From Chloroflexota bacterium (GTDB lineage Bacteria; Chloroflexota; Dehalococcoidia; Lucifugimonadales; UBA826): a stretch of 64,000 nucleotides of DNA. Position 1 is the first letter of the stretch; each line of letters starts with the position of its first letter. This document shows positions 6,701 to 49,635 of this stretch, one piece after another. The position numbers and the translations under genes are program-made. Location: NCBI GenBank assembly GCA_002722155.1, contig PBKS01000019.1, positions 60,687-124,686 of the forward strand, read 5' to 3'. The notes below the pieces were generated by a model. It saw nothing but the letters and a program-made list of their open reading frames with translations, ran no database searches and was not told the DNA's origin.

Positions 6701-7339
6701 TTACCTTAAATGATCGTCGTCTCCAAACTTATTTATCTGAAAGTGGTGGTGCCCAGAAGTCATAGAATTGGTGGCATCCCAGTTATCGGAATCAATCTCG
6801 AAATCAAAAATAGCCGTATTTGCTATTCGGAGATTCCAAACACGATTCGTTCCCAGGATTACTGAAATTAAATAAACTAGAAATCCACTGTGGGAATAAC
6901 CAATGACGAAATCCTGTGAATTATGCCCTTTAATTAAAAAATCCACGGCTCTCTCTGCTCTACGGCGTATTTGATATCGTGTCTCTGCCTCTGGGACTAA
7001 ATCAAAATTTCTAGATCTCCGAAATTCCTTATAAATGGCGGCAAACTCAGAGGATAATTCTTCAGATGTCTTTCCTGAAAACACACCAACATCATTTTCT
7101 CTAAGATCGGGGATTTTATGAATGGTTCTTTGCGGAAAAGATATCTCAGCGGTTTTATAAGATCTGGTTAATGGACTTGAATAAACATGAGAAGGATGCA
7201 ATGCATCTTTGATAAACCTCTCGTGTAGTCTTTGGCTTTGATTTAAACCATCATTGGAAAGATCGAAATCCATAGTCCCCTGCCAGCGACCCTGGGCGTT
7301 CGCTAAAGATTGTGCATGCCTGATTAGAATTAACCTCAT
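6701..7339 (-). CDS. Histidine phosphatase family protein (paralog, convergent)
   Basis: N-terminal MRLILIRHAQSLAN. 212 aa. Its stop is 13 nt from the stop of the preceding paralog. Confidence 0.8.
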   Translation of the reverse strand: MRLILIRHAQSLANAQGRWQGTMDFDLSNDGLNQSQRLHERFIKDALHPSHVYSSPLTRSYKTAEISFPQRTIHKIPDLRENDVGVFSGKTSEELSSEFAAIYKEFRRSRNFDLVPEAETRYQIRRRAERAVDFLIKGHNSQDFVIGYSHSGFLVYLISVILGTNRVWNLRIANTAIFDFEIDSDNWDATNSMTSGHHHFQINKFGDDDHLR

Positions 7340-7351
7340 TGTTTTTCCTGT

Positions 7352-8848
7352 TTAGCCAATTTCAGACTCGGGTCTAATAGACTGATTTCCAAATCTGCCA
7401 CGAATACCACCGAGTATAACTAATAACACTGTAAAAACCATAAGTACGGTAGAAAGTTGAAATGCTCTGGCCATTGCAGACGCATAAGCGGTACGTAAAC
7501 CAAGATCCTTAAGTTTCTCAGTGTCAGACAGATCTGCCTCGTACCCCAGTCCAGCCATGACTGACACCACTATAGCAGTCGGTATGGCTATCCCTACTAT
7601 ATGGGCTCCATTTCTAGTTAAGTTTAAAAATGCCGACACAATTCCATAGTGTTGCCTGCCGGCACTTCCCATAATTGAGCTTGTGTTCGGTGCCATAAAA
7701 ATGCTCATGCCCATACCTGACAAACCAGAAGCTATTCCTACCAACAGCAACGGAGAATTCAAGCTCACGTTAGAAAACAAATACATTGCCAAGGAACATA
7801 AAAGCATTCCTACAACTGATGGGCCAGTTGTTCCAATTCGGTCAGCAAATCGACCGCTAATTGGGCCAAAAATGGCTAATGTAATTGAACCCGGTAGTAA
7901 ATATAGTGCTGCGGAAGCAGTTGTCAGCCCAAGACCTGATACCAGAAAGAATGGCAATAGGAAAAACGAACTGGAACCAGCCGTAAAGGATAAAAACCTA
8001 GATGCCGATCCTAACGAAAATGGAAATGACTTAAACAAACCGAGAGGCAACATCGGGTTCTGTGCGGTTTTTTCTCTATAGAGAAACGCTATTAAAAGCA
8101 AAACAGAGAGCCCGGTTCCAATAATAATATAAGTAGAGAAAAAAGATAGTTTGTTAATGAACGTTATTACCAGCATTAGAGAAAGAAGAAAAGAAGCTGA
8201 AAGAAAGGTCCCGTTCCAGTCAAAATCCTTGATGGAATCTCGTTTCGTGGAACCCTTCTTTGGATCCGGCTCTAAGACCAATGCGGCAATACACAACGCA
8301 AGAATACTAAACGCGGCTATAAAAACGAAGATGGCCCTCCACCCCATATAGCTCTCAATACCCCCACCAATAACGGGACCTCCAATCGCCCCCAACCCTA
8401 CGATGGTCATATGTAAACCGAGCGCTTTACCTCTCTCTTCATCTGGAAAGGATCGTGCAATCATTGCCATACCATTTGCTTGCAGAGCTGAAGCCCCAAC
8501 ACCCATGAAAACTTTACCTACTAAAACCATCCAGAATTCTTGAGAGAGCCCCGTAAGGGCCGTAGCAAATGCAAAAACCAATAAACCCCACACCCAAATT
8601 TTTTTTCTCCCTATCGAATCGGCAATAGCGCCCGCAGGCATCATCAAAGCGCTCACGCTTAACATGTACGCAATCGCCATCCACTGTGCAGTGGGAATAT
8701 CTGCACCAAAATGTTCCGCGATGCTGGGAACTACTATCGCTGTAGCAGACTGTTCCACAATGGAAATAAAAGTACCGATTGCAACGGCGCCATAAACCCA
8801 CCACCTATAAGAGGGTTTATCTTTAATTCGCCTTGAGAAAAAATCCAT
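7352..8848 (-). CDS. MFS transporter, DHA2 (EmrB/QacA-like, about 14 TMS) family
   Basis: 498 aa, highly hydrophobic. MFS motif A-like GAIADSIGRKK and the motif PDEERGKALGL. Confidence 0.85.
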   Translation of the reverse strand: MDFFSRRIKDKPSYRWWVYGAVAIGTFISIVEQSATAIVVPSIAEHFGADIPTAQWMAIAYMLSVSALMMPAGAIADSIGRKKIWVWGLLVFAFATALTGLSQEFWMVLVGKVFMGVGASALQANGMAMIARSFPDEERGKALGLHMTIVGLGAIGGPVIGGGIESYMGWRAIFVFIAAFSILALCIAALVLEPDPKKGSTKRDSIKDFDWNGTFLSASFLLSLMLVITFINKLSFFSTYIIIGTGLSVLLLIAFLYREKTAQNPMLPLGLFKSFPFSLGSASRFLSFTAGSSSFFLLPFFLVSGLGLTTASAALYLLPGSITLAIFGPISGRFADRIGTTGPSVVGMLLCSLAMYLFSNVSLNSPLLLVGIASGLSGMGMSIFMAPNTSSIMGSAGRQHYGIVSAFLNLTRNGAHIVGIAIPTAIVVSVMAGLGYEADLSDTEKLKDLGLRTAYASAMARAFQLSTVLMVFTVLLVILGGIRGRFGNQSIRPESEIG

Positions 8849-40420: not shown

Positions 40421-42280
40421 TTGTCCATGCAAAGTGCAAAAATCTCGTTAGGCTTATTCTTGTTGGTTTTTTTGGCTTTGCCCTGCTTTTCCTGCGATGT
40501 GAATAAATCTGCCTCTTCGTCAGAGGAGGAAACCAGAAATGTAGTGTCAATGACTTCTCCTATTGGAAAATGGATAGATTTTACTGAAAATCCACCAGAT
40601 AGAGATCTAAAAAATCTCGCTATCCAATATGGACTCACTCCAAATAGAAAATCTTCGTTAAATCGATTTAGTGAACAAGGTCACAGTGTGGGAAGGCTAG
40701 ATATGTTTACGGTTATCAATTTGCGAGTTCCAGAATTGTATGAAGTAGAAGCTGAGTTAGTTTATGTAACAGATAGTGCTTATTGGTATGTTGACATCGA
40801 TAAGGGCTTTGATCGAAATTCCTATGAAATGGCTGCCATAAAATGGGAGCAAATAGTTTTGGATCATTTCGCGGAACACCCTGCCATTAAGCTAACCATT
40901 CTAAATACTAGCTTACAAGGCGTTTCAGGGTATTTTAGTGATGTTGATTCATATCCTCATTGGGTTCATATTAATAGTAACGACCGCCCGATGATATACC
41001 TAGATCCCTCGAGAAATAAACCAGGATCGGACGCCTATATGTCTGTTTTGATTCATGAGTTTCATCACTTGATTCACAATATGTTAGATGAAGGAGAAGA
41101 AGCATGGGTTAACGAAGGGTTGGCTGAACTTGATGTAAGAAACTTGGGTTATGAGACACATGTGGAAAAATATTTTTTGAATGAGCCAAACACTCAGTTG
41201 AATTTTTGGCCTAGCGAACCCAAGAAAAGCCTACCGCACTATGGTGCAGCCTCCTTATTTTTTGAATTTGTCAGCGGTAGAATTTCCGACCCTCAATCTT
41301 TGAATGCCTTGATGGAAGAGTCACAAGATGGGCTTTCTGGGGTTGACAGTTGGTTGAGGAACAATGGTACTGATTTTCATGATGAGTTTGGGAAATGGAC
41401 AGTTGCTAATTATTTGGGATTGGAGAGAGGAGAATATTCATACCCATCGAGAGCGATCAAATTGAAATCAGGTATAGACCGTTTAGAGATCGGGGAAAAT
41501 AATTATCTAGTCTCCCAATATGGAACTCGGTACTTCAAGATGAAAGAAATAGAAAAAGATATTGGAATAAAGATTAAGGGAAATAGTCGGGTTGGTCGTT
41601 TCAACACTAAATGTCATACGAAATGTTGGTGGTCTAACAAGGGTGATTCTATAGATTCTTCTCTTACTTTGGACATTGATTTAACAACTCGGGAGAATCC
41701 GGAATTACGATTTGAACTCTGGCATGATATTGAGGAGGGATGGGATTATGGTTACCTATCTGTATCCACCGATCAAGGGGAAACATGGGAGACTCTTGCA
41801 GCTAAGGGAACTACTTCAAAAAACCCAGTAGGTTCCAACTATGGGTATGGTTACACTGGAGAGTCAGACTGGGTTACTAATCATGTCGGTTTAAGTGATT
41901 TTATTGGTAAAGAAATATTGGTTAAATTCCAATATGTTACGGATGCTGCAGTTCATCTTGATGGTATGCTCATTAAAGGGATTAGATTAATCGATATGAA
42001 TGTTGAAATTGCTGACGAATATTTGAAATATAATTCCTCAGGATTTGTCTTGGTCGATGATTTTGTTAAACAAAATTTTTTATTTCAGGTACTGAAAAAA
42101 TTGCCGTCAGGTAAGTATGTAGTTGATAATATTTCCTTGGATGAGTTTAATGAGGCCTTGTACCTTGTAGACAAAGAAGAAAACTTGAAAGAGGTTGCCG
42201 TTGTAGTATCCGGTATGACTGGACTTACTCAGCAGCCTGCGAAATTCACCCTATCGGTTTCAGAAGGTCTTGATAATTAA
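40421..42280 (+). CDS. Secreted gluzincin-type metallopeptidase (HExxH ... NEGxAE) with C-terminal beta-sandwich domain
   Basis: 619 aa. Signal peptide. LIHEFHHLIH followed 15 residues later by WVNEGLAE (M1-like third-ligand motif). C-terminal GYLSVSTDQGETWETL-type domain. Confidence 0.7.
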   Translation: MSMQSAKISLGLFLLVFLALPCFSCDVNKSASSSEEETRNVVSMTSPIGKWIDFTENPPDRDLKNLAIQYGLTPNRKSSLNRFSEQGHSVGRLDMFTVINLRVPELYEVEAELVYVTDSAYWYVDIDKGFDRNSYEMAAIKWEQIVLDHFAEHPAIKLTILNTSLQGVSGYFSDVDSYPHWVHINSNDRPMIYLDPSRNKPGSDAYMSVLIHEFHHLIHNMLDEGEEAWVNEGLAELDVRNLGYETHVEKYFLNEPNTQLNFWPSEPKKSLPHYGAASLFFEFVSGRISDPQSLNALMEESQDGLSGVDSWLRNNGTDFHDEFGKWTVANYLGLERGEYSYPSRAIKLKSGIDRLEIGENNYLVSQYGTRYFKMKEIEKDIGIKIKGNSRVGRFNTKCHTKCWWSNKGDSIDSSLTLDIDLTTRENPELRFELWHDIEEGWDYGYLSVSTDQGETWETLAAKGTTSKNPVGSNYGYGYTGESDWVTNHVGLSDFIGKEILVKFQYVTDAAVHLDGMLIKGIRLIDMNVEIADEYLKYNSSGFVLVDDFVKQNFLFQVLKKLPSGKYVVDNISLDEFNEALYLVDKEENLKEVAVVVSGMTGLTQQPAKFTLSVSEGLDN

Positions 42281-44816: not shown

Positions 44817-46019
44817 ATGACTTTATCAAGTGATCTCCCAGACCAATCAGGTAGATTTGGACGGTTTGGCGGCAGATATGTTCCGGAAACATTAATGCCG
44901 GCCATAAATGAGCTTGAAGAATCTTATGCGAAAGTTCAATTGGATGATGAATTTCAGGTGGAACTCTCAGAACTACTAAGAAATTTTGTGGGAAGGCCAA
45001 CAGAACTGTATTTTGCCCCTAACCTGACAAAACGTTTTGGCGGGGCACAAGTTTTTCTTAAACGTGAAGATTTAGCTCACACCGGAGCACATAAAATCAA
45101 CAATGCGTTAGGCCAAGGTCTCCTAGCCAAGAAAATGAAAAAAACTCGAATAATAGCTGAAACAGGGGCTGGGCAACATGGGGTAGCTACCGCTACTGTC
45201 TGTGCCAAACTCGGATTAGATTGTGTCGTTTACATGGGAGAAGAAGACATAAGAAGGCAAGCGTTAAATGTATTCCGAATGAAGTTATTGGGGGCCGAAG
45301 TTATTTCAGTGAATTCAGGAAGTAAAACTCTTAAAGATGCTATTAATGAGGCAATGAGAGATTGGGTGACTAATGTAGATGATTCTTACTATTTGATCGG
45401 AAGTGTAGTAGGTCCTCATCCTTACCCCATGATAGTGCGTGATTTTCAAAGAATAATAGGACAGGAAAGCAGAAAACAAATTTTAGAACAAGTTGGGAGC
45501 TTGCCGGATTATGTAATAGCTTGTGTTGGAGGTGGTAGTAATGCAATGGGGTTGTTCTACGATTTTATTGGTGATGAGAGCGTTAATTTGATAGGAGTGG
45601 AGGCAGGGGGAGATGGTATAGAGTCTGGCAGACATTCTTCCACAATTTCCGCTGGATCAGTAGGTGTTTTGCATGGAAGTATGTCTTATCTCATTCAAAA
45701 TGAAGATGGTCAGATTATCGAGACTCATAGCATTTCGGCGGGATTAGATTACCCCGGAGTTGGCCCAGAGCATAGTTGGTTGAATGATGGTAATAGGGCC
45801 ACATACGTAAGTGTGGATGATGCCCAGGCCCTTGAAGGCTTCAAATTATTATGTGAGACAGAAGGAATAATTCCAGCACTTGAACCTGCACATGCGGTCT
45901 ATCACGTTTCTCAATTAGCGCCCACATTAAGTAAAGATAAGGTTATATTGATGGGTTTGTCTGGTCGTGGTGATAAGGATATGGAAACCGTGGCAACAGA
46001 GATGGACGTTCGGGTTTAG
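44817..46019 (+). CDS. trpB: Tryptophan synthase beta chain (TrpB1 type)
   Basis: 400 aa. [16 protein letters not shown]-lysine context HTGAHKINN, and GGGSNAMG. Confidence 0.95.
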
Positions 46020-46026
46020 TTTTGAA

Positions 46027-46425
46027 ATGTCACTAATTGCTTCTGGGGTGGCGCATGGGGTTCTATGGAGAATACCACCGCTAGTTTTGCTAATCTCCTT
46101 TTTATTTCCCTCAATGGGCGTCATGTTGGATCATCATTTTCCAGAGAGAGATCCATACCACTCTCATTTGACCCATGTATCAAAACACACGCATTTAGGT
46201 TTAGTGGAGCATACTCACCCGGAGTCAGATATTCCCTTACCCTCCACCGCGATTTTTGTGACAAAAGATGCAGGAATAGGGTCGACTGGAATCTATATTG
46301 ATTTGTTAAAAACAGAACACCGAGTCCTCAGGGCTCCCCTTGTATTGAGTAAATTGTCGATTTTAAAAATAGTCTTTTATAAAGACATAACTCAGACTGT
46401 TGAGATTCCTCCGCCAATCCTATAG
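46027..46425 (+). CDS. Hypothetical single-pass membrane protein with His-rich segment
   Basis: One predicted TM (PPLVLLISFLFPSMGVML), then DHHFPERDPYHSHLTHVSKHTHLGLVEHTHPESD (10 His in 34 aa). The ATG lies 7 nt after the trpB stop. The start is uncertain (ORF-track 45967 overlaps trpB; GTG 46048 is also possible). Confidence 0.5.
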   Translation: MSLIASGVAHGVLWRIPPLVLLISFLFPSMGVMLDHHFPERDPYHSHLTHVSKHTHLGLVEHTHPESDIPLPSTAIFVTKDAGIGSTGIYIDLLKTEHRVLRAPLVLSKLSILKIVFYKDITQTVEIPPPIL

Positions 46426-46478: not shown

Positions 46479-47030
46479 ATGCTCTGGCTCCGTGCCATTA
46501 TTTTGGTATTGTCCTTACTTTTAGGACTATATATTCAATCGGTAACCTTGGTTGAAGCTAATGGTTCAATACGCTCATATGAAAAAGAAATAATTGATAA
46601 GTACATCATAGGTTTAGGTACAGCACCTCCTTCTCCAACGATCGGTGTGACTCATTTTGCTGCCTTTGTGGAAGATAAAGAAACGGGTGTGAAATATATG
46701 GACGCTCGCATAGAGTTCCTCGCTACTTTCTCAGGTCCCATTCAGCAGGAAATAGGTCCCTATCAAATGACTAATAGTCTTATGGACCCAATGTATTACG
46801 AGGTAGACACGGCCCTTGAAAGAGAAGGAATTTGGTTAGTAACATTGTCCATAGCATTAGGGGAAGAAACTCTACCCTCTGCGGTGTTTGAGATTGAAGT
46901 TAAAAAACAAAACCCGATAGTACCTATTTTGACTGTGGGAACTTTGTTATTTTTTCTAGTGATTTTGAGTTTGTCACTGCGTGCTTGGGTGAAAGAATAT
47001 ACACAGAAACGAAAAATCGGGAATGTTTAA
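46479..47030 (+). CDS. Hypothetical exported protein with N-terminal signal/anchor and C-terminal TM helix (FixH/YtkA-like beta-sandwich suspected)
   Basis: 183 aa. GGAG SD. Hydrophobic N-terminus, soluble middle ending GIWLVTLSIALGEETLPSAVFEIEV, and C-terminal TM PILTVGTLLFFLVILSLSL. Confidence 0.65.
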   Translation: MLWLRAIILVLSLLLGLYIQSVTLVEANGSIRSYEKEIIDKYIIGLGTAPPSPTIGVTHFAAFVEDKETGVKYMDARIEFLATFSGPIQQEIGPYQMTNSLMDPMYYEVDTALEREGIWLVTLSIALGEETLPSAVFEIEVKKQNPIVPILTVGTLLFFLVILSLSLRAWVKEYTQKRKIGNV

Positions 47031-47794
47031 TGAAAAATAAATTTATACTATATGTTGCTGTTTTGACTTTATTCTTTGTTTTGTCAACAGCTTGTGGCTC
47101 TTCAGAAAATGATCCATCTCCAGCCAGTACAGAATTTAATATTGTAATCAGTGGCGGGAATTTGGTGGGTGATGTTGACTCCTTAAGGATAAAGAAAAAT
47201 GAGGATGTCACTCTAAATTTTGATTCTGATTCTGAAATCACGGTTCATTTGCATGGATATGATATTGAGAAGACGATTTCAGCTGAACACACTGCTGTCA
47301 TGGAATTTAAGGCAAATGCCACCGGAAGATTTGTGGTGACCACTCATGAAGTAGAATCAGAACATCATGGAGACCGTGCATCGCATTCGGATCATGGGCA
47401 TATGGCTGTTGACAATGAGGCTCACGCAGCTTTATTTGAATCTGAGACCTTAAGTTCAGGAGATACCTATAAATATGAAATACCTACTGATTTTAGGGAG
47501 ATTATCATTCCATATCACGACCACATGAGTCATGATTCTGTCGGTCAGATAGAAGTATCAATTCATCATGGTGGTGATGGAGAAGTATCTGTCTATGTGA
47601 GAGATGGGGAACGCCAGTTCCATCCTGAACATGTGATGGTAAAACCAGGAGCTAGTGTTAAATGGATAATCGAATCAGAAGAGAAGGTCCGATTGACTAG
47701 TGGTTTACCTCCATCAAGTCACGGTGATCATTCAAATCACTCGAGTGAGGGGTCTAGTGAGAAAACCCTAATCACCTTAGAAGTATATCCGTAA
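47030..47794 (+). CDS. Hypothetical His-rich lipoprotein with cupredoxin-like segments
   Basis: TAATG coupling to the upstream gene. Signal ending LSTAC. His clusters: VHLHGYD, HEVESEHHGDRASHSDHGH, PYHDHMSHD, SIHHGG, SSHGDHSNHS. FHPEHVMVKPGASVKWI resembles a cupredoxin strand pattern. Confidence 0.65.
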   Translation: MKNKFILYVAVLTLFFVLSTACGSSENDPSPASTEFNIVISGGNLVGDVDSLRIKKNEDVTLNFDSDSEITVHLHGYDIEKTISAEHTAVMEFKANATGRFVVTTHEVESEHHGDRASHSDHGHMAVDNEAHAALFESETLSSGDTYKYEIPTDFREIIIPYHDHMSHDSVGQIEVSIHHGGDGEVSVYVRDGERQFHPEHVMVKPGASVKWIIESEEKVRLTSGLPPSSHGDHSNHSSEGSSEKTLITLEVYP

Positions 47795-47810: not shown

Positions 47811-49346
47811 GTGAATATTAAAATGAAAACATATATGGCACTAACCTTTTTGGGCCTTTCTACACTTTTGTTTGTTCCGGAGGTTGGTGCCCACGGCTTT
47901 GGAGAAAGATATGATTTACCCATTCCTTTAAGCTATTTTCTCCTAGGCTCAGCTCTTGCAGTGGCCTTATCTTTTGCCGTTATTGGTTGGTTTATACGCT
48001 CGAGTGCCAATAACTCTGAGTATCCAAGGTTTAATATTTTTCGATTCTTTGTGATCGAATTGGTTTGCAAAATCACTTCCAAAATATTCGGGTTGATTTC
48101 GGTTTTGATCCTCTTTTTATCGATTCACACCGGTCTTATCGGTACTTCAAATGCGATAGAAAATTTTGCGCCAGTTTTTGTCTGGATCATATGGTGGGTT
48201 GGGGTTGGGTATGTTGTGTGTCTGGTGGGGAATATATGGTTAATTATGAACCCTTGGTTAGTTATATTTAACTACTTGGAACAATTATTTGGTAAACGGA
48301 CAGGGTTTGTAGATTGGCCCAAAAAGCTAGATGCGTGGCCAGCTCTTGGATTTTTCCTTCTATTCGCTTGGATTGAAAATGTACATCCTGCCAGTTCCGA
48401 GCCGTTCAGTTTGGGGATTTTATTAATAATTTATTCTCTTTTGACATGGGGAGGGATGATTTTATTTGGGAAACATGTGTGGTTAACACACGGAGATCCT
48501 TTTTTTGTTTTATTTAATTTGTTTGCTCGCTTTTCTGCTACGGAATTAAGGGTGCATGGCAACAAAAATTGGTGTGCCTCCTGCTCTTCTGGATGTCAGG
48601 AAAACCTTCAGCTAACTGACTGTGTTGATTGTTATGAATGTTGGGAAAATGCACCTTCACAAAATAGGGAATTTTCATTAAGGCCCTGGTCAGCCGGCCT
48701 GTCTCGAGGAGATCGAGTTACCCCTGCAATAATGTTCTTCCATGTGACTGCCCTGGCTACGGTTTCCTTTGATGGGTTTTCTGAAACCCCTGCATGGGTT
48801 GAGATCCAAACTATTTTGTGGCCGCTAATTGACCCACTTCCGGGTTCTGCAGCTGCCATGGTGAAAACATTGGGAATAATTCTGGTGCCTATAATTTTTG
48901 CAGGGGTATATTTGTACGTATGTGGTTTTATATCTCGAATGTCCCATGGGCAAATGACGCCCACAGATATTAGGATGAGTTTTGTATTTTCTTTAGTCCC
49001 AATAGCCCTAGCCTATAACCTTTCCCACTATCTATCCTTTCTATTAATTACTGGACAGGAAATAATTCCTCTTGTGTCAGATCCTTATGGCTTTGGATGG
49101 AATTTGTTTGGTACGACAGACTTTAAGGTAAATATAGCCATTATTGATGCTAGGGTTGCTTGGATATTTTCAGTGATTGCTTTGGTGACAGGTCACATAA
49201 TATCTGTATTTACTGCCCACGTAATAGCTTTGAGGAAAACTAAAACGCATGCAATTGCTGTCAGAAGCCAATACCCGATGCTGTTTTTAATGGTGTTTTA
49301 TACTGCCGTGAGCTTGTGGATAATTGCTCAACCAATTGTGGAATAG
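47811..49346 (+). CDS. Hypothetical polytopic membrane protein (about 11-12 TMS) with predicted mature N-terminal His and a six-Cys loop
   Basis: 511 aa. Signal-like N-terminus with a V-G-A|H-G-F-G cleavage context (His codon 47892..47894). Loop WCASCSSGCQENLQLTDCVDCYECW (48573..48641). Start alternatives are 47823 and 47835. Confidence 0.7.
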   Translation: MNIKMKTYMALTFLGLSTLLFVPEVGAHGFGERYDLPIPLSYFLLGSALAVALSFAVIGWFIRSSANNSEYPRFNIFRFFVIELVCKITSKIFGLISVLILFLSIHTGLIGTSNAIENFAPVFVWIIWWVGVGYVVCLVGNIWLIMNPWLVIFNYLEQLFGKRTGFVDWPKKLDAWPALGFFLLFAWIENVHPASSEPFSLGILLIIYSLLTWGGMILFGKHVWLTHGDPFFVLFNLFARFSATELRVHGNKNWCASCSSGCQENLQLTDCVDCYECWENAPSQNREFSLRPWSAGLSRGDRVTPAIMFFHVTALATVSFDGFSETPAWVEIQTILWPLIDPLPGSAAAMVKTLGIILVPIIFAGVYLYVCGFISRMSHGQMTPTDIRMSFVFSLVPIALAYNLSHYLSFLLITGQEIIPLVSDPYGFGWNLFGTTDFKVNIAIIDARVAWIFSVIALVTGHIISVFTAHVIALRKTKTHAIAVRSQYPMLFLMVFYTAVSLWIIAQPIVE

Positions 49347-49410
49347 CTTTGATCTTGCTAAATTATGACGATTGCAAAATTTATATCAGCCACTAAAAAG
49401 TGAGAACAGT

Positions 49411-49635
49411 ATGTCTAGTGAACCGGAAAGTGTTAAATCTTTTACCTGCCCCAAATGCTCAAACACCTCATTCGAGACGGGAGAGATTCGAACAACTGGA
49501 TCGGGACTTTCGAGATTTCTAGATCTTCAGAATCAAAAATTTGCCCACATAACATGTGACAGCTGTGGATACACTGAGTTTTTTAAAAGGCGTGGGGGTC
49601 GGGCAGGAAACATACTTGATCTGTTTACCGGGTAG
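49411..49635 (+). CDS. Small zinc-ribbon protein
   Basis: CPKC...(33 aa)...CDSC pair of CxxC knuckles. About 74 aa from the ATG at 49411. Confidence 0.6.
   Translation: MSSEPESVKSFTCPKCSNTSFETGEIRTTGSGLSRFLDLQNQKFAHITCDSCGYTEFFKRRGGRAGNILDLFTG

Follow-up and report, generated by a model that had tools for sequence, protein, structure and literature searches.

A widespread, unannotated family of membrane proteins with a predicted N-terminal histidine as candidate transition-metal permeases

In the copper protein PmoB, a histidine becomes the N-terminal residue after signal-peptide cleavage, and in PmoC an intramembrane site is formed by an Asp and two His. N-terminal metal ligands also occur in proteins of metal uptake. 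NikM (TtNikM2), the S-component of an energy-coupling factor Ni/Co transporter, binds Ni(II) through its free amino group, His2 and His67 (PMC3945884). Anglerases (Ang-1 and Ang-2), which are fused to HupE/UreJ permeases, carry a 100%-conserved His-1 after the signal peptide; together with an O-donor (Asn41 in RbAng-1a) it binds Cu(II) with nanomolar affinity, and it has been proposed to capture metal for uptake (PMC12537917). The CopC-CopD and YcnJ-YcnI systems combine a periplasmic Cu(II)-binding protein that has an N-terminal His with a polytopic membrane protein (PMC12362106, PMC8424229). Moreover, in EfeUOB, FetMP, P19-cFtr1 and FtrABCD, an Ftr1-type permease is served by Cup-domain/FtrB cupredoxins, P19 or DyP (PMC9174327, PMC11966278). 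Here we analysed a stretch of 64,000 nucleotides (the window; contig PBKS01000019.1, positions 60,687 to 124,686, assembly GCA_002722155.1) of a Chloroflexota bacterium of the class Dehalococcoidia, in which the gene at 47811..49346 encodes a membrane protein with ten transmembrane (TM) helices and a predicted N-terminal His. The protein family belongs to none of NikM/CbiM, HupE/UreJ, Ftr1/EfeU/FetM and CopD, and by analogy it may work like the chaperone-fed uptake systems. We consider the protein to be probably a transition-metal permease of some kind, and more tentatively propose, from sequence comparisons, that it represents an undescribed family of 10-TM copper importers with an upstream, extracytoplasmic, Cys-less cupredoxin-like partner. 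The gene and the parts of its product that bear on this proposal are as follows.

47811..49346, plus strand: gene of the 10-TM membrane protein, unannotated family, proposed metal permease
47811..47891, plus strand: predicted Sec/signal peptidase I signal peptide, residues 1-27 (...PEVGA), from n-/h-/c-region and -1/-3 statistics
47892..47927, plus strand: conserved extracytoplasmic N-terminal segment H28-G-F-G-E-R-Y-D-L-P-I-P, from residue conservation
48375..48377, plus strand: Glu189, outer end of TM4, 398/404 sequences
48573..48641, plus strand: six-Cys loop CASCSSGCQENLQLTDCVDCYEC, with C255, C258, C262, C271, C274 and C277
48771..48773, plus strand: Asp321, outer end of TM6, 401/403 sequences, proposed outer-site partner of His28
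49014..49028, plus strand: Tyr402...His406 in TM8, Y402 in 397/399 and H406 in 398/398 sequences, putative intramembrane site
49194..49220, plus strand: His462...His470 in TM9, H462 in 393/394 and H470 in 392/394 sequences, putative intramembrane site

The family is unannotated, undescribed and widespread, with no detectable relative in sequence or in solved structure. Scans of the protein and 26 diverse relatives against Pfam and NCBIfam gave no match for the core family; against Pfam, the 26 diverse members had no match at E <= 1, including CbiM (PF01891) and HupE/UreJ (PF04955, PF13795), and none to FTR1 (PF03239), CopD (PF05425) or Fer4. A sequence search of the PDB with the protein found no relative, and a Foldseek search of the PDB with both AlphaFold models found no similar solved structure (best E 0.16, template-modelling score < 0.2). 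A literature search on one lead, "fenitrothion hydrolase", yielded nothing useful. The sequence-only reading, made from the letters of the window, knew of no comparable characterised protein; the family is indeed unannotated, but permeases with N-terminal ligands have precedents in NikM/CbiM and the HupE/UreJ anglerases. There are 1912 matches among the scored candidates in a 90%-identity collection, all of them unnamed or "hypothetical", and at least 6200 representatives at 50% identity with E <= 1e-3, 1394 of which have E <= 1e-30. In addition, one C-terminal motif gave at least 553 confirmed places in GTDB species genomes. Close relatives of the protein are found in SAR202/Dehalococcoidia, in keeping with a marine Chloroflexota genome as the origin of the window, whereas distant members occur in Methylomirabilota/Rokubacteria, Trueperaceae (Deinococcota), Gammaproteobacteria, Alphaproteobacteria and the tiny genomes of Patescibacteria. 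Further members reside on plasmids or chromids of cultured Variovorax, Rhizobium, Neorhizobium, Sulfitobacter, Sagittula and Ralstonia, and likewise in Mycolicibacterium, Rhodococcus and Pseudonocardia (Actinomycetota) and in many haloarchaea.

The open reading frame (ORF) encodes 511 residues from a GTG start, with an in-frame ATG at 47823, and lies in a region of flat GC content, which indicates that the locus is native. As the sequence-only reading had described, it opens with a signal-peptide-like V-G-A|H N-terminus and carries six Cys at 48573..48641. The codon CAC at 47892..47894 encodes His28, preceded by ...LLFVPEVGA. Averaged over 120 homologues, the segment before this His has the anatomy of a signal peptide, with an n-region charge of about +1.9, an h-region of about 13.5 uncharged residues and a c-region of 5 residues. 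Relative to His28, position -1 is Ala in 363 of 374 sequences (97%) and position -3 is Ala or Val in 323 of 374 (86%), and the His motif starts at residue 20-34 in 323 of 375 (86%). Residue conservation was determined over 404 near-full-length family members, the denominators being the sequences aligned at the given column. The His28 column holds His in 397/398 sequences, directly after the A/V-x-A site, which bears out the earlier expectation of a conserved His at position +1 of a canonical cleavage site. F30, G31, Y34, L36, P37 and P39 are each at least 90% conserved, and the consensus H-[GA]-F-G-x-R-Y-D-L-P-x-P-L continues directly into TM1. Family conservation begins exactly at the -1/+1 boundary, with variable sequence upstream. 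Because of this switch from variable to conserved sequence, the A/V-x-A site and the signal-peptide anatomy, signal peptidase I very likely cleaves at A27|H28 and leaves His28 as residue 1 of the mature protein.

A separate observation concerns the start of the Variovorax paradoxus homologue (L087, CP063167.1, locus 6950-8398). Its deposited start is a GTG downstream of the AHGFGQRFDLPLPL motif. Further upstream, the ORF stays open over a stretch that resembles a signal peptide and offers none of the canonical starts ATG, GTG and TTG; probably, either the annotation of the start is wrong or translation begins at a non-canonical codon.

The same architecture emerges from a Kyte-Doolittle scan and from two AlphaFold2 runs: a helix resembling a signal peptide, then 10 long TM helices, in addition to two short amphipathic helices (residues 148-160 and 327-340). 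The full-length model has a predicted local distance difference test score (pLDDT) of 84.8 and a predicted template-modelling score (pTM) of 0.82, compared to a pLDDT of 91.9 and a pTM of 0.91 for the mature form. The protein is thus a polytopic membrane protein, as had been noted, but has 10 TM helices instead of 11-12; the signal peptide accounts for an eleventh hydrophobic segment, beside the two amphipathic helices. The mean number of Lys plus Arg over the 120 homologues is high in the loops 63-81 (3.4), 142-175 (4.1), 220-243 (3.2), 281-304 (3.9) and 475-487 (3.4), in contrast to the segments 111-118 (0.4), 191-197 (0.3), 324-346 (0.5) and 415-446 (0.8), and it is also low at the mature N-terminus and the C-terminus. 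These positive-inside counts indicate 10 TM helices with the N- and C-termini both outside. Independent support for an outside C-terminus comes from Methylomirabilota-type members, which possess a C-terminal domain of about 400 residues, a relative of family-5 solute-binding proteins (7fi3_A, E 1e-7), which has to be located outside the cytoplasm. The fusions were found in Methylomirabilota/Rokubacteria (L058:6878-9667, L074:6923-9646, P0125 and P0160).

Beyond the N-terminal segment, the fixed residues of the family include Pro148, present in 404/404 members, and the Glu, Asp, Tyr and His residues listed above. A group of Haloferax-type members lacks His28, and in all six of these sequences (6/6) Asp321 is replaced by Ser and Trp125 by Phe, whereas His28, Asp321 and Trp125 are all kept in 11 other plasmid-borne members and in the metagenomic set. 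By contrast, His406, His462, His470, Tyr402 and Glu189 are unchanged in both plasmid-borne groups, with or without His28. The joint loss of His28 and Asp321 argues that the two act as a single unit at the outer face of the protein, to which Trp125 may also belong, and points to Asp321, not a second His, as the candidate partner of His28. The His, Tyr and Glu residues of TM4, TM8 and TM9 would make up a core site of their own, shared by the whole family.

Compared to the histidine-brace proteins, the putative outer site is placed differently. His28 lies 12 residues before TM1 of an all-α 10-TM protein, and no soluble β-sandwich or cupredoxin-like domain carries it, unlike in lytic polysaccharide monooxygenases (LPMOs), CopC, YcnI and PmoB. 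Of the brace-like site suggested by the sequence-only reading, a metal site at the N-terminal His therefore remains reasonable, given its conservation and the copper- and metal-related neighbourhood, but a classical two-His brace on a β-sandwich does not. Similar to NikM/CbiM, the protein has an extracytoplasmic N-terminus with a short conserved loop right before TM1. This is an analogy only: the two differ in sequence and fold and in the number of TM helices (10 against 7), the predicted ligand His is at position 1 instead of following Met1 as His2, and the locus has a cupredoxin-like partner but no CbiN/Q/O genes. Like the anglerase fusions, this metal-permease candidate has a predicted signal peptide followed by a near-invariant predicted His-1. 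However, the anglerase His sits on a separate β-sandwich domain, and the genes have different neighbours. CopC shares the signal-peptide-A|H design, but there the N-terminal His belongs to the soluble protein and here to the membrane protein. Homology to the CopC-CopD fusion that neighbours some family members was considered and rejected (hhalign probability 0.5%).

The six-Cys loop is an insertion at the tip of a β-hairpin (strands 244-248 and 286-290 in the AlphaFold model), in which C255xxC258 and C271xxC274 sit between the strands; the loop was compared with the paired CxxC knuckles of zinc-ribbon and rubredoxin-like proteins, and has no Pfam match. The side of the membrane on which it lies was checked by the positive-inside counts, and its K/R-rich flanks place it in the cytoplasm, so it cannot share a site with the periplasmic His28. 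Nor are its six Cys invariant among homologues. There is no Cys at the loop in 209/404 members, which have a 7-residue linker instead, compared to 6-7 Cys in 163/404; the loop is also missing in 16/26 diverse members. In closely related loci, at least six Cys are present in 77/84. The first triad varies in spacing and is gone from some close relatives, whereas the second triad keeps to the pattern C[IVL][DN]CxxC[FW]. The loop-bearing subfamily comprises members from Chloroflexota, Methylomirabilota, Trueperaceae and metagenome-assembled genomes (MAGs) of Gammaproteobacteria. The motif is ferredoxin-like and reminiscent of FtrD; it consists of a CxxCxxC triad without the fourth Cys-Pro of the Fer4-type CxxCxxCxxxCP, and has no match to Pfam Fer4. 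By this distribution, the loop is an accessory cytoplasmic insertion of one subfamily and not a family feature, and its cytoplasmic location would allow it to bind Zn, an Fe-S cluster or Cu(I).

The loop and the intramembrane His bear on the reading of the protein as a membrane redox enzyme or electron conduit instead of a transporter, for example a cupric/ferric reductase or a copper-dependent oxidase. Here the TM His would bind copper or haem, and the CxxCxxC loop would hold an Fe-S cluster exchanging electrons with the periplasmic cupredoxin-like partner. Consistent with it are three invariant TM His with a Tyr and a Glu, a cytoplasmic loop with a fixed CxxCxxC triad, a fold unlike any solved transporter (Foldseek against the PDB), and, among the neighbours, a cytochrome c domain on the CopCD fusion and HiPIP, cupredoxin-like and DyP proteins. 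Against it, half of the family lacks the Cys loop, so cytoplasmic electron entry cannot be the core function; three conserved TM His are too few for two bis-His haems; neither Fer4 nor any other redox Pfam family is matched; and the solute-binding-like fusions point to transport. We therefore regard a redox function as rather improbable. Related to it is a single-polypeptide membrane copper enzyme, not a carrier, which would combine an outer N-terminal-His copper site as in PmoB and LPMOs with an intramembrane His/Tyr/Glu site as in PmoC, and would act at the membrane surface on a small substrate or a metal, oxidising or reducing it; in the SAR202/Methylomirabilota subfamily, electrons would be fed through a cytoplasmic Fe-S loop. 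Unlike PmoB/AmoB and PmoC, however, the family has both putative sites on one polypeptide, shows no sequence or fold relation to them, and has no pmoA- or pmoC-like genes nearby; unlike the copper membrane monooxygenases, it also occurs in the tiny genomes of Patescibacteria. We consider such an enzyme highly improbable.

Synteny was analysed over 84 related loci, mostly from Dehalococcoidia. The permease gene is the last of a conserved cluster, which in the window is preceded by the following genes.

46027..46425, plus strand: small membrane-anchored His-rich protein, DHHF(P/A)ERxPxHxH; ORF 45967..46425, likely start Met 46027
46479..47030, plus strand: secreted β-sandwich protein (signal peptide, then ANG...) with a C-terminal TM anchor, YtkA-like or copper-resistance-like
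47030..47794, plus strand: Cys-less cupredoxin-like lipoprotein, the permease partner; mechanical ORF starts at 46985

The cupredoxin-like partner is directly upstream on the same strand in 68/84 loci. It has an invariant D..HLHGY(D) motif and a C-terminal EVxP(R/K) strand, in addition to His-rich and acidic inserts in the window copy. It scores E 8.8e-6 against Pfam Cupredoxin_1, just under the cutoff, and its profile matches CuA domains, NirK, nitrosocyanin and multicopper oxidases, the HLH motif being aligned with the first copper-ligand His of these matches. Patescibacteria, Alpha- and Gammaproteobacteria, Trueperaceae, Actinomycetota and an unclassified MAG have a minimal partner of about 130 residues, encoded directly before the permease. 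The upstream partner spans six phyla, and the partner and permease genes often overlap by a few bases; this pairing across phyla indicates that the two genes are the conserved core of the system. The partner is absent from the Methylomirabilota/Rokubacteria loci with solute-binding-like fusions. Upstream in these loci lies a gene for a secreted protein of 384-439 residues, which starts with GHELPxYPSYYPHEI after the signal peptide.

The β-sandwich protein is conserved in 67/84 loci, and its family profile weakly matches the "Copper resistance protein" PDB 9ll2 (E 9.5e-4). The His-rich protein is in the same position in 46/84 loci and has no Pfam or NCBIfam match; its ORF overlaps the 3' end of trpB, and its peptide, DHHFPERDPYHSHLTHVSKHTHLGLVEHTHPE, is probably a metal-binding accessory of the cluster. 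In 17/84 loci, a CopC-CopD-YtkA-cytochrome c fusion gene is inserted directly upstream of the permease. One such locus also encodes a secreted, C-terminally anchored protein of 265 residues (L003:4840-5637), which has HEHRNVHEY right after the signal peptide, and thus a predicted N-terminal His, as well as an acidic Glu/Asp/His-rich insert, and no Pfam match. In Sulfitobacter, the gene of a PCu(A)C chaperone lies divergently upstream of the permease homologue.

Other genes of the window and of the synteny set were set apart from this cluster. The Zn_ribbon_13 (DUF2082) gene at 49372..49635, 25 nt downstream of the permease, was rejected as a conserved partner; it has the same position in only 7/84 loci and is probably outside the system. 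The neighbour clusters 14, 16 and 19 of the synteny set are spurious alternative-frame ORFs in GC-rich genes. The ORF 40421..42280 encodes an unrelated secreted protein of 619 residues with an InhA-like MAM domain (PF20773, E 2e-24) and an HEFHH metalloprotease-like motif.

In haloarchaea, the permease homologue lies beside P19-type "iron transporter" genes and/or genes of DyP-like proteins with a twin-arginine translocation (Tat) signal in 9/10 loci, one of these nine being assigned by position/size only. Pfam scans verified P19 (PF10634 + DUF7350) for three haloarchaeal genes and DyP (DUF7405/Dyp_perox_C) for two. A heavy-metal P-type ATPase gene and a HiPIP gene are often present as well, and no Ftr1-like gene with REXXE motifs was found near the permease homologue in the loci examined. 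A megaplasmid metal island recurs among them (L090, Haloferax volcanii pHV4 618050-631126; L094, L095, L100 and L101). It encodes a P19-like protein (PF10634 + DUF7350), a protein of 85-88 residues (weak DUF7410), a His28-less permease homologue, a heavy-metal P-type ATPase, a HiPIP and a Tat DyP-like protein (DUF7405); the annotation of the islands includes no Ftr1-type permease.

These loci invite comparison with the Ftr1/EfeU/FetM permeases (OFeT), which likewise combine a polytopic membrane component with a Cys-less cupredoxin (EfeO Cup, FtrB), P19 or Tat DyP. The protein could accordingly be an iron permease that replaces Ftr1/EfeU/FetM in a copper-dependent, oxidase-type Fe(II) uptake system. 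In such a system, the cupredoxin-like partner (as EfeO Cup or FtrB), P19 or DyP would oxidise iron or pass it on, a Cu cofactor or Fe(II) would be bound at the N-terminal His, and the six-Cys loop would be an electron sink like the FtrD polyferredoxin; one source in fact labels a family member "polyferredoxin". Iron is favoured by the haloarchaeal P19 and DyP neighbours and the EfeO/FtrB analogy, and also by the absence of an Ftr1-like gene nearby. The Cupredoxin_1 family matched by the bacterial partner, which covers EfeO-type Cup domains, points the same way. Moreover, an Ftr1-type permease is part of every known system with Cup, P19 or DyP components (PMC9174327, PMC11966278). The protein itself, however, contains no REXXE motif (RE..E), matches no FTR1 family and has 10 TM helices instead of 7; its conserved ligand set, including the N-terminal His, is rich in His, which is atypical for Fe(III) transport; and half of the family has no Cys loop. 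In bacteria, the neighbours CopCD, PCu(A)C and YtkA-like are copper genes, and operons for copper trafficking, such as sco-ecuc-SLI_4212-dtpA (PMC4736821), likewise contain DyP and Tat genes. Altogether, we consider an iron permease unlikely, though iron is the main rival of copper as the substrate.

The metal permease reading is preferred because of the combination of a ligand-bearing N-terminal loop on the outside, a coupled outer acidic residue, a column of His in TM8 and TM9, an exit loop rich in Cys (one subfamily), a fusion to a solute-binding-like domain (another subfamily) and a linked metalloprotein-like partner. Copper is favoured by the N-terminal His chemistry, the CopC-CopD, YtkA-like and PCu(A)C neighbours and the cupredoxin-like partner, and is the most likely substrate; import, which fits the C-terminal solute-binding-like fusion, is the most likely direction. 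In the mechanism that we propose, signal peptidase I would cut after Ala27, and the amino group and imidazole of His28, now residue 1, would form together with Asp321 at the outer end of TM6 a capture site resembling the anglerase "mono-histidine brace" or the N-terminal loop site of NikM. The HLH site of the cupredoxin-like lipoprotein would supply this outer site with Cu(II), and the ion would pass to the intramembrane site composed of His406 and Tyr402 (TM8), His462 and His470 (TM9) and Glu189 (TM4), from which it would reach the cytoplasm. There, the six-Cys loop of the loop-bearing subfamily would receive the ion, or would be a sensor or redox module.

Several observations weigh against this proposal. 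The haloarchaeal P19 and DyP neighbours are classical partners of iron permeases; P19 itself is a copper protein. A CopCD importer is encoded in the same operon in some loci, so the protein could do something else. The conserved core lacks Met and Cys, which is unusual for Cu(I) transport. The family shows no sequence or fold relation to any transporter (Pfam, Foldseek against the PDB), and an internal 5+5 repeat was not detected (hhalign probability 0.6%). The first four mature residues are undocked in AlphaFold, with pLDDT < 50, also after re-prediction of the mature form; the models speak neither for nor against docking of His28. Actinobacterial members have no signal peptide, their ORFs opening 5-12 codons upstream of A-H-G-x-G..DLPxP and overlapping the cupredoxin-like gene (L091:5986-7347, L097:4995-6296, L099:4983-6341), and Haloferax/Haloarcula-type members have no His28. 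Both groups argue that the core function can do without a free N-terminal His.

The same members, with the undocked N-terminus, would fit a reading in which His28 does not form a free N-terminus or does not bind metal, and in which the motif is structural, as a plug or gate, with a non-metal or a metallophore complex as the substrate; the family-5 solute-binding-like domain of some members also fits, as family-5 solute-binding proteins mostly bind peptides. Against such a role, the His is present in 397/398 sequences exactly at +1 of the canonical cleavage site and is lost together with Asp321, and the metal-related gene context is consistent across bacteria and archaea. We consider this explanation improbable.

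If the metal permease reading is true, the family would be a previously undescribed class of transition-metal permease, which would join OFeT and CopD as the membrane component of uptake systems based on cupredoxin, P19 or CopC chaperones. The "N-terminal histidine" principle of metal binding, known from soluble domains, would then also apply to the body of a polytopic membrane protein. Homologues in the genetically tractable Haloferax volcanii (HVO_RS04650), Variovorax paradoxus, Rhizobium etli, Sulfitobacter and Mycolicibacterium make the hypothesis directly testable. For the abundant deep-ocean SAR202 bacteria, such a permease would help to explain how copper or iron is acquired.

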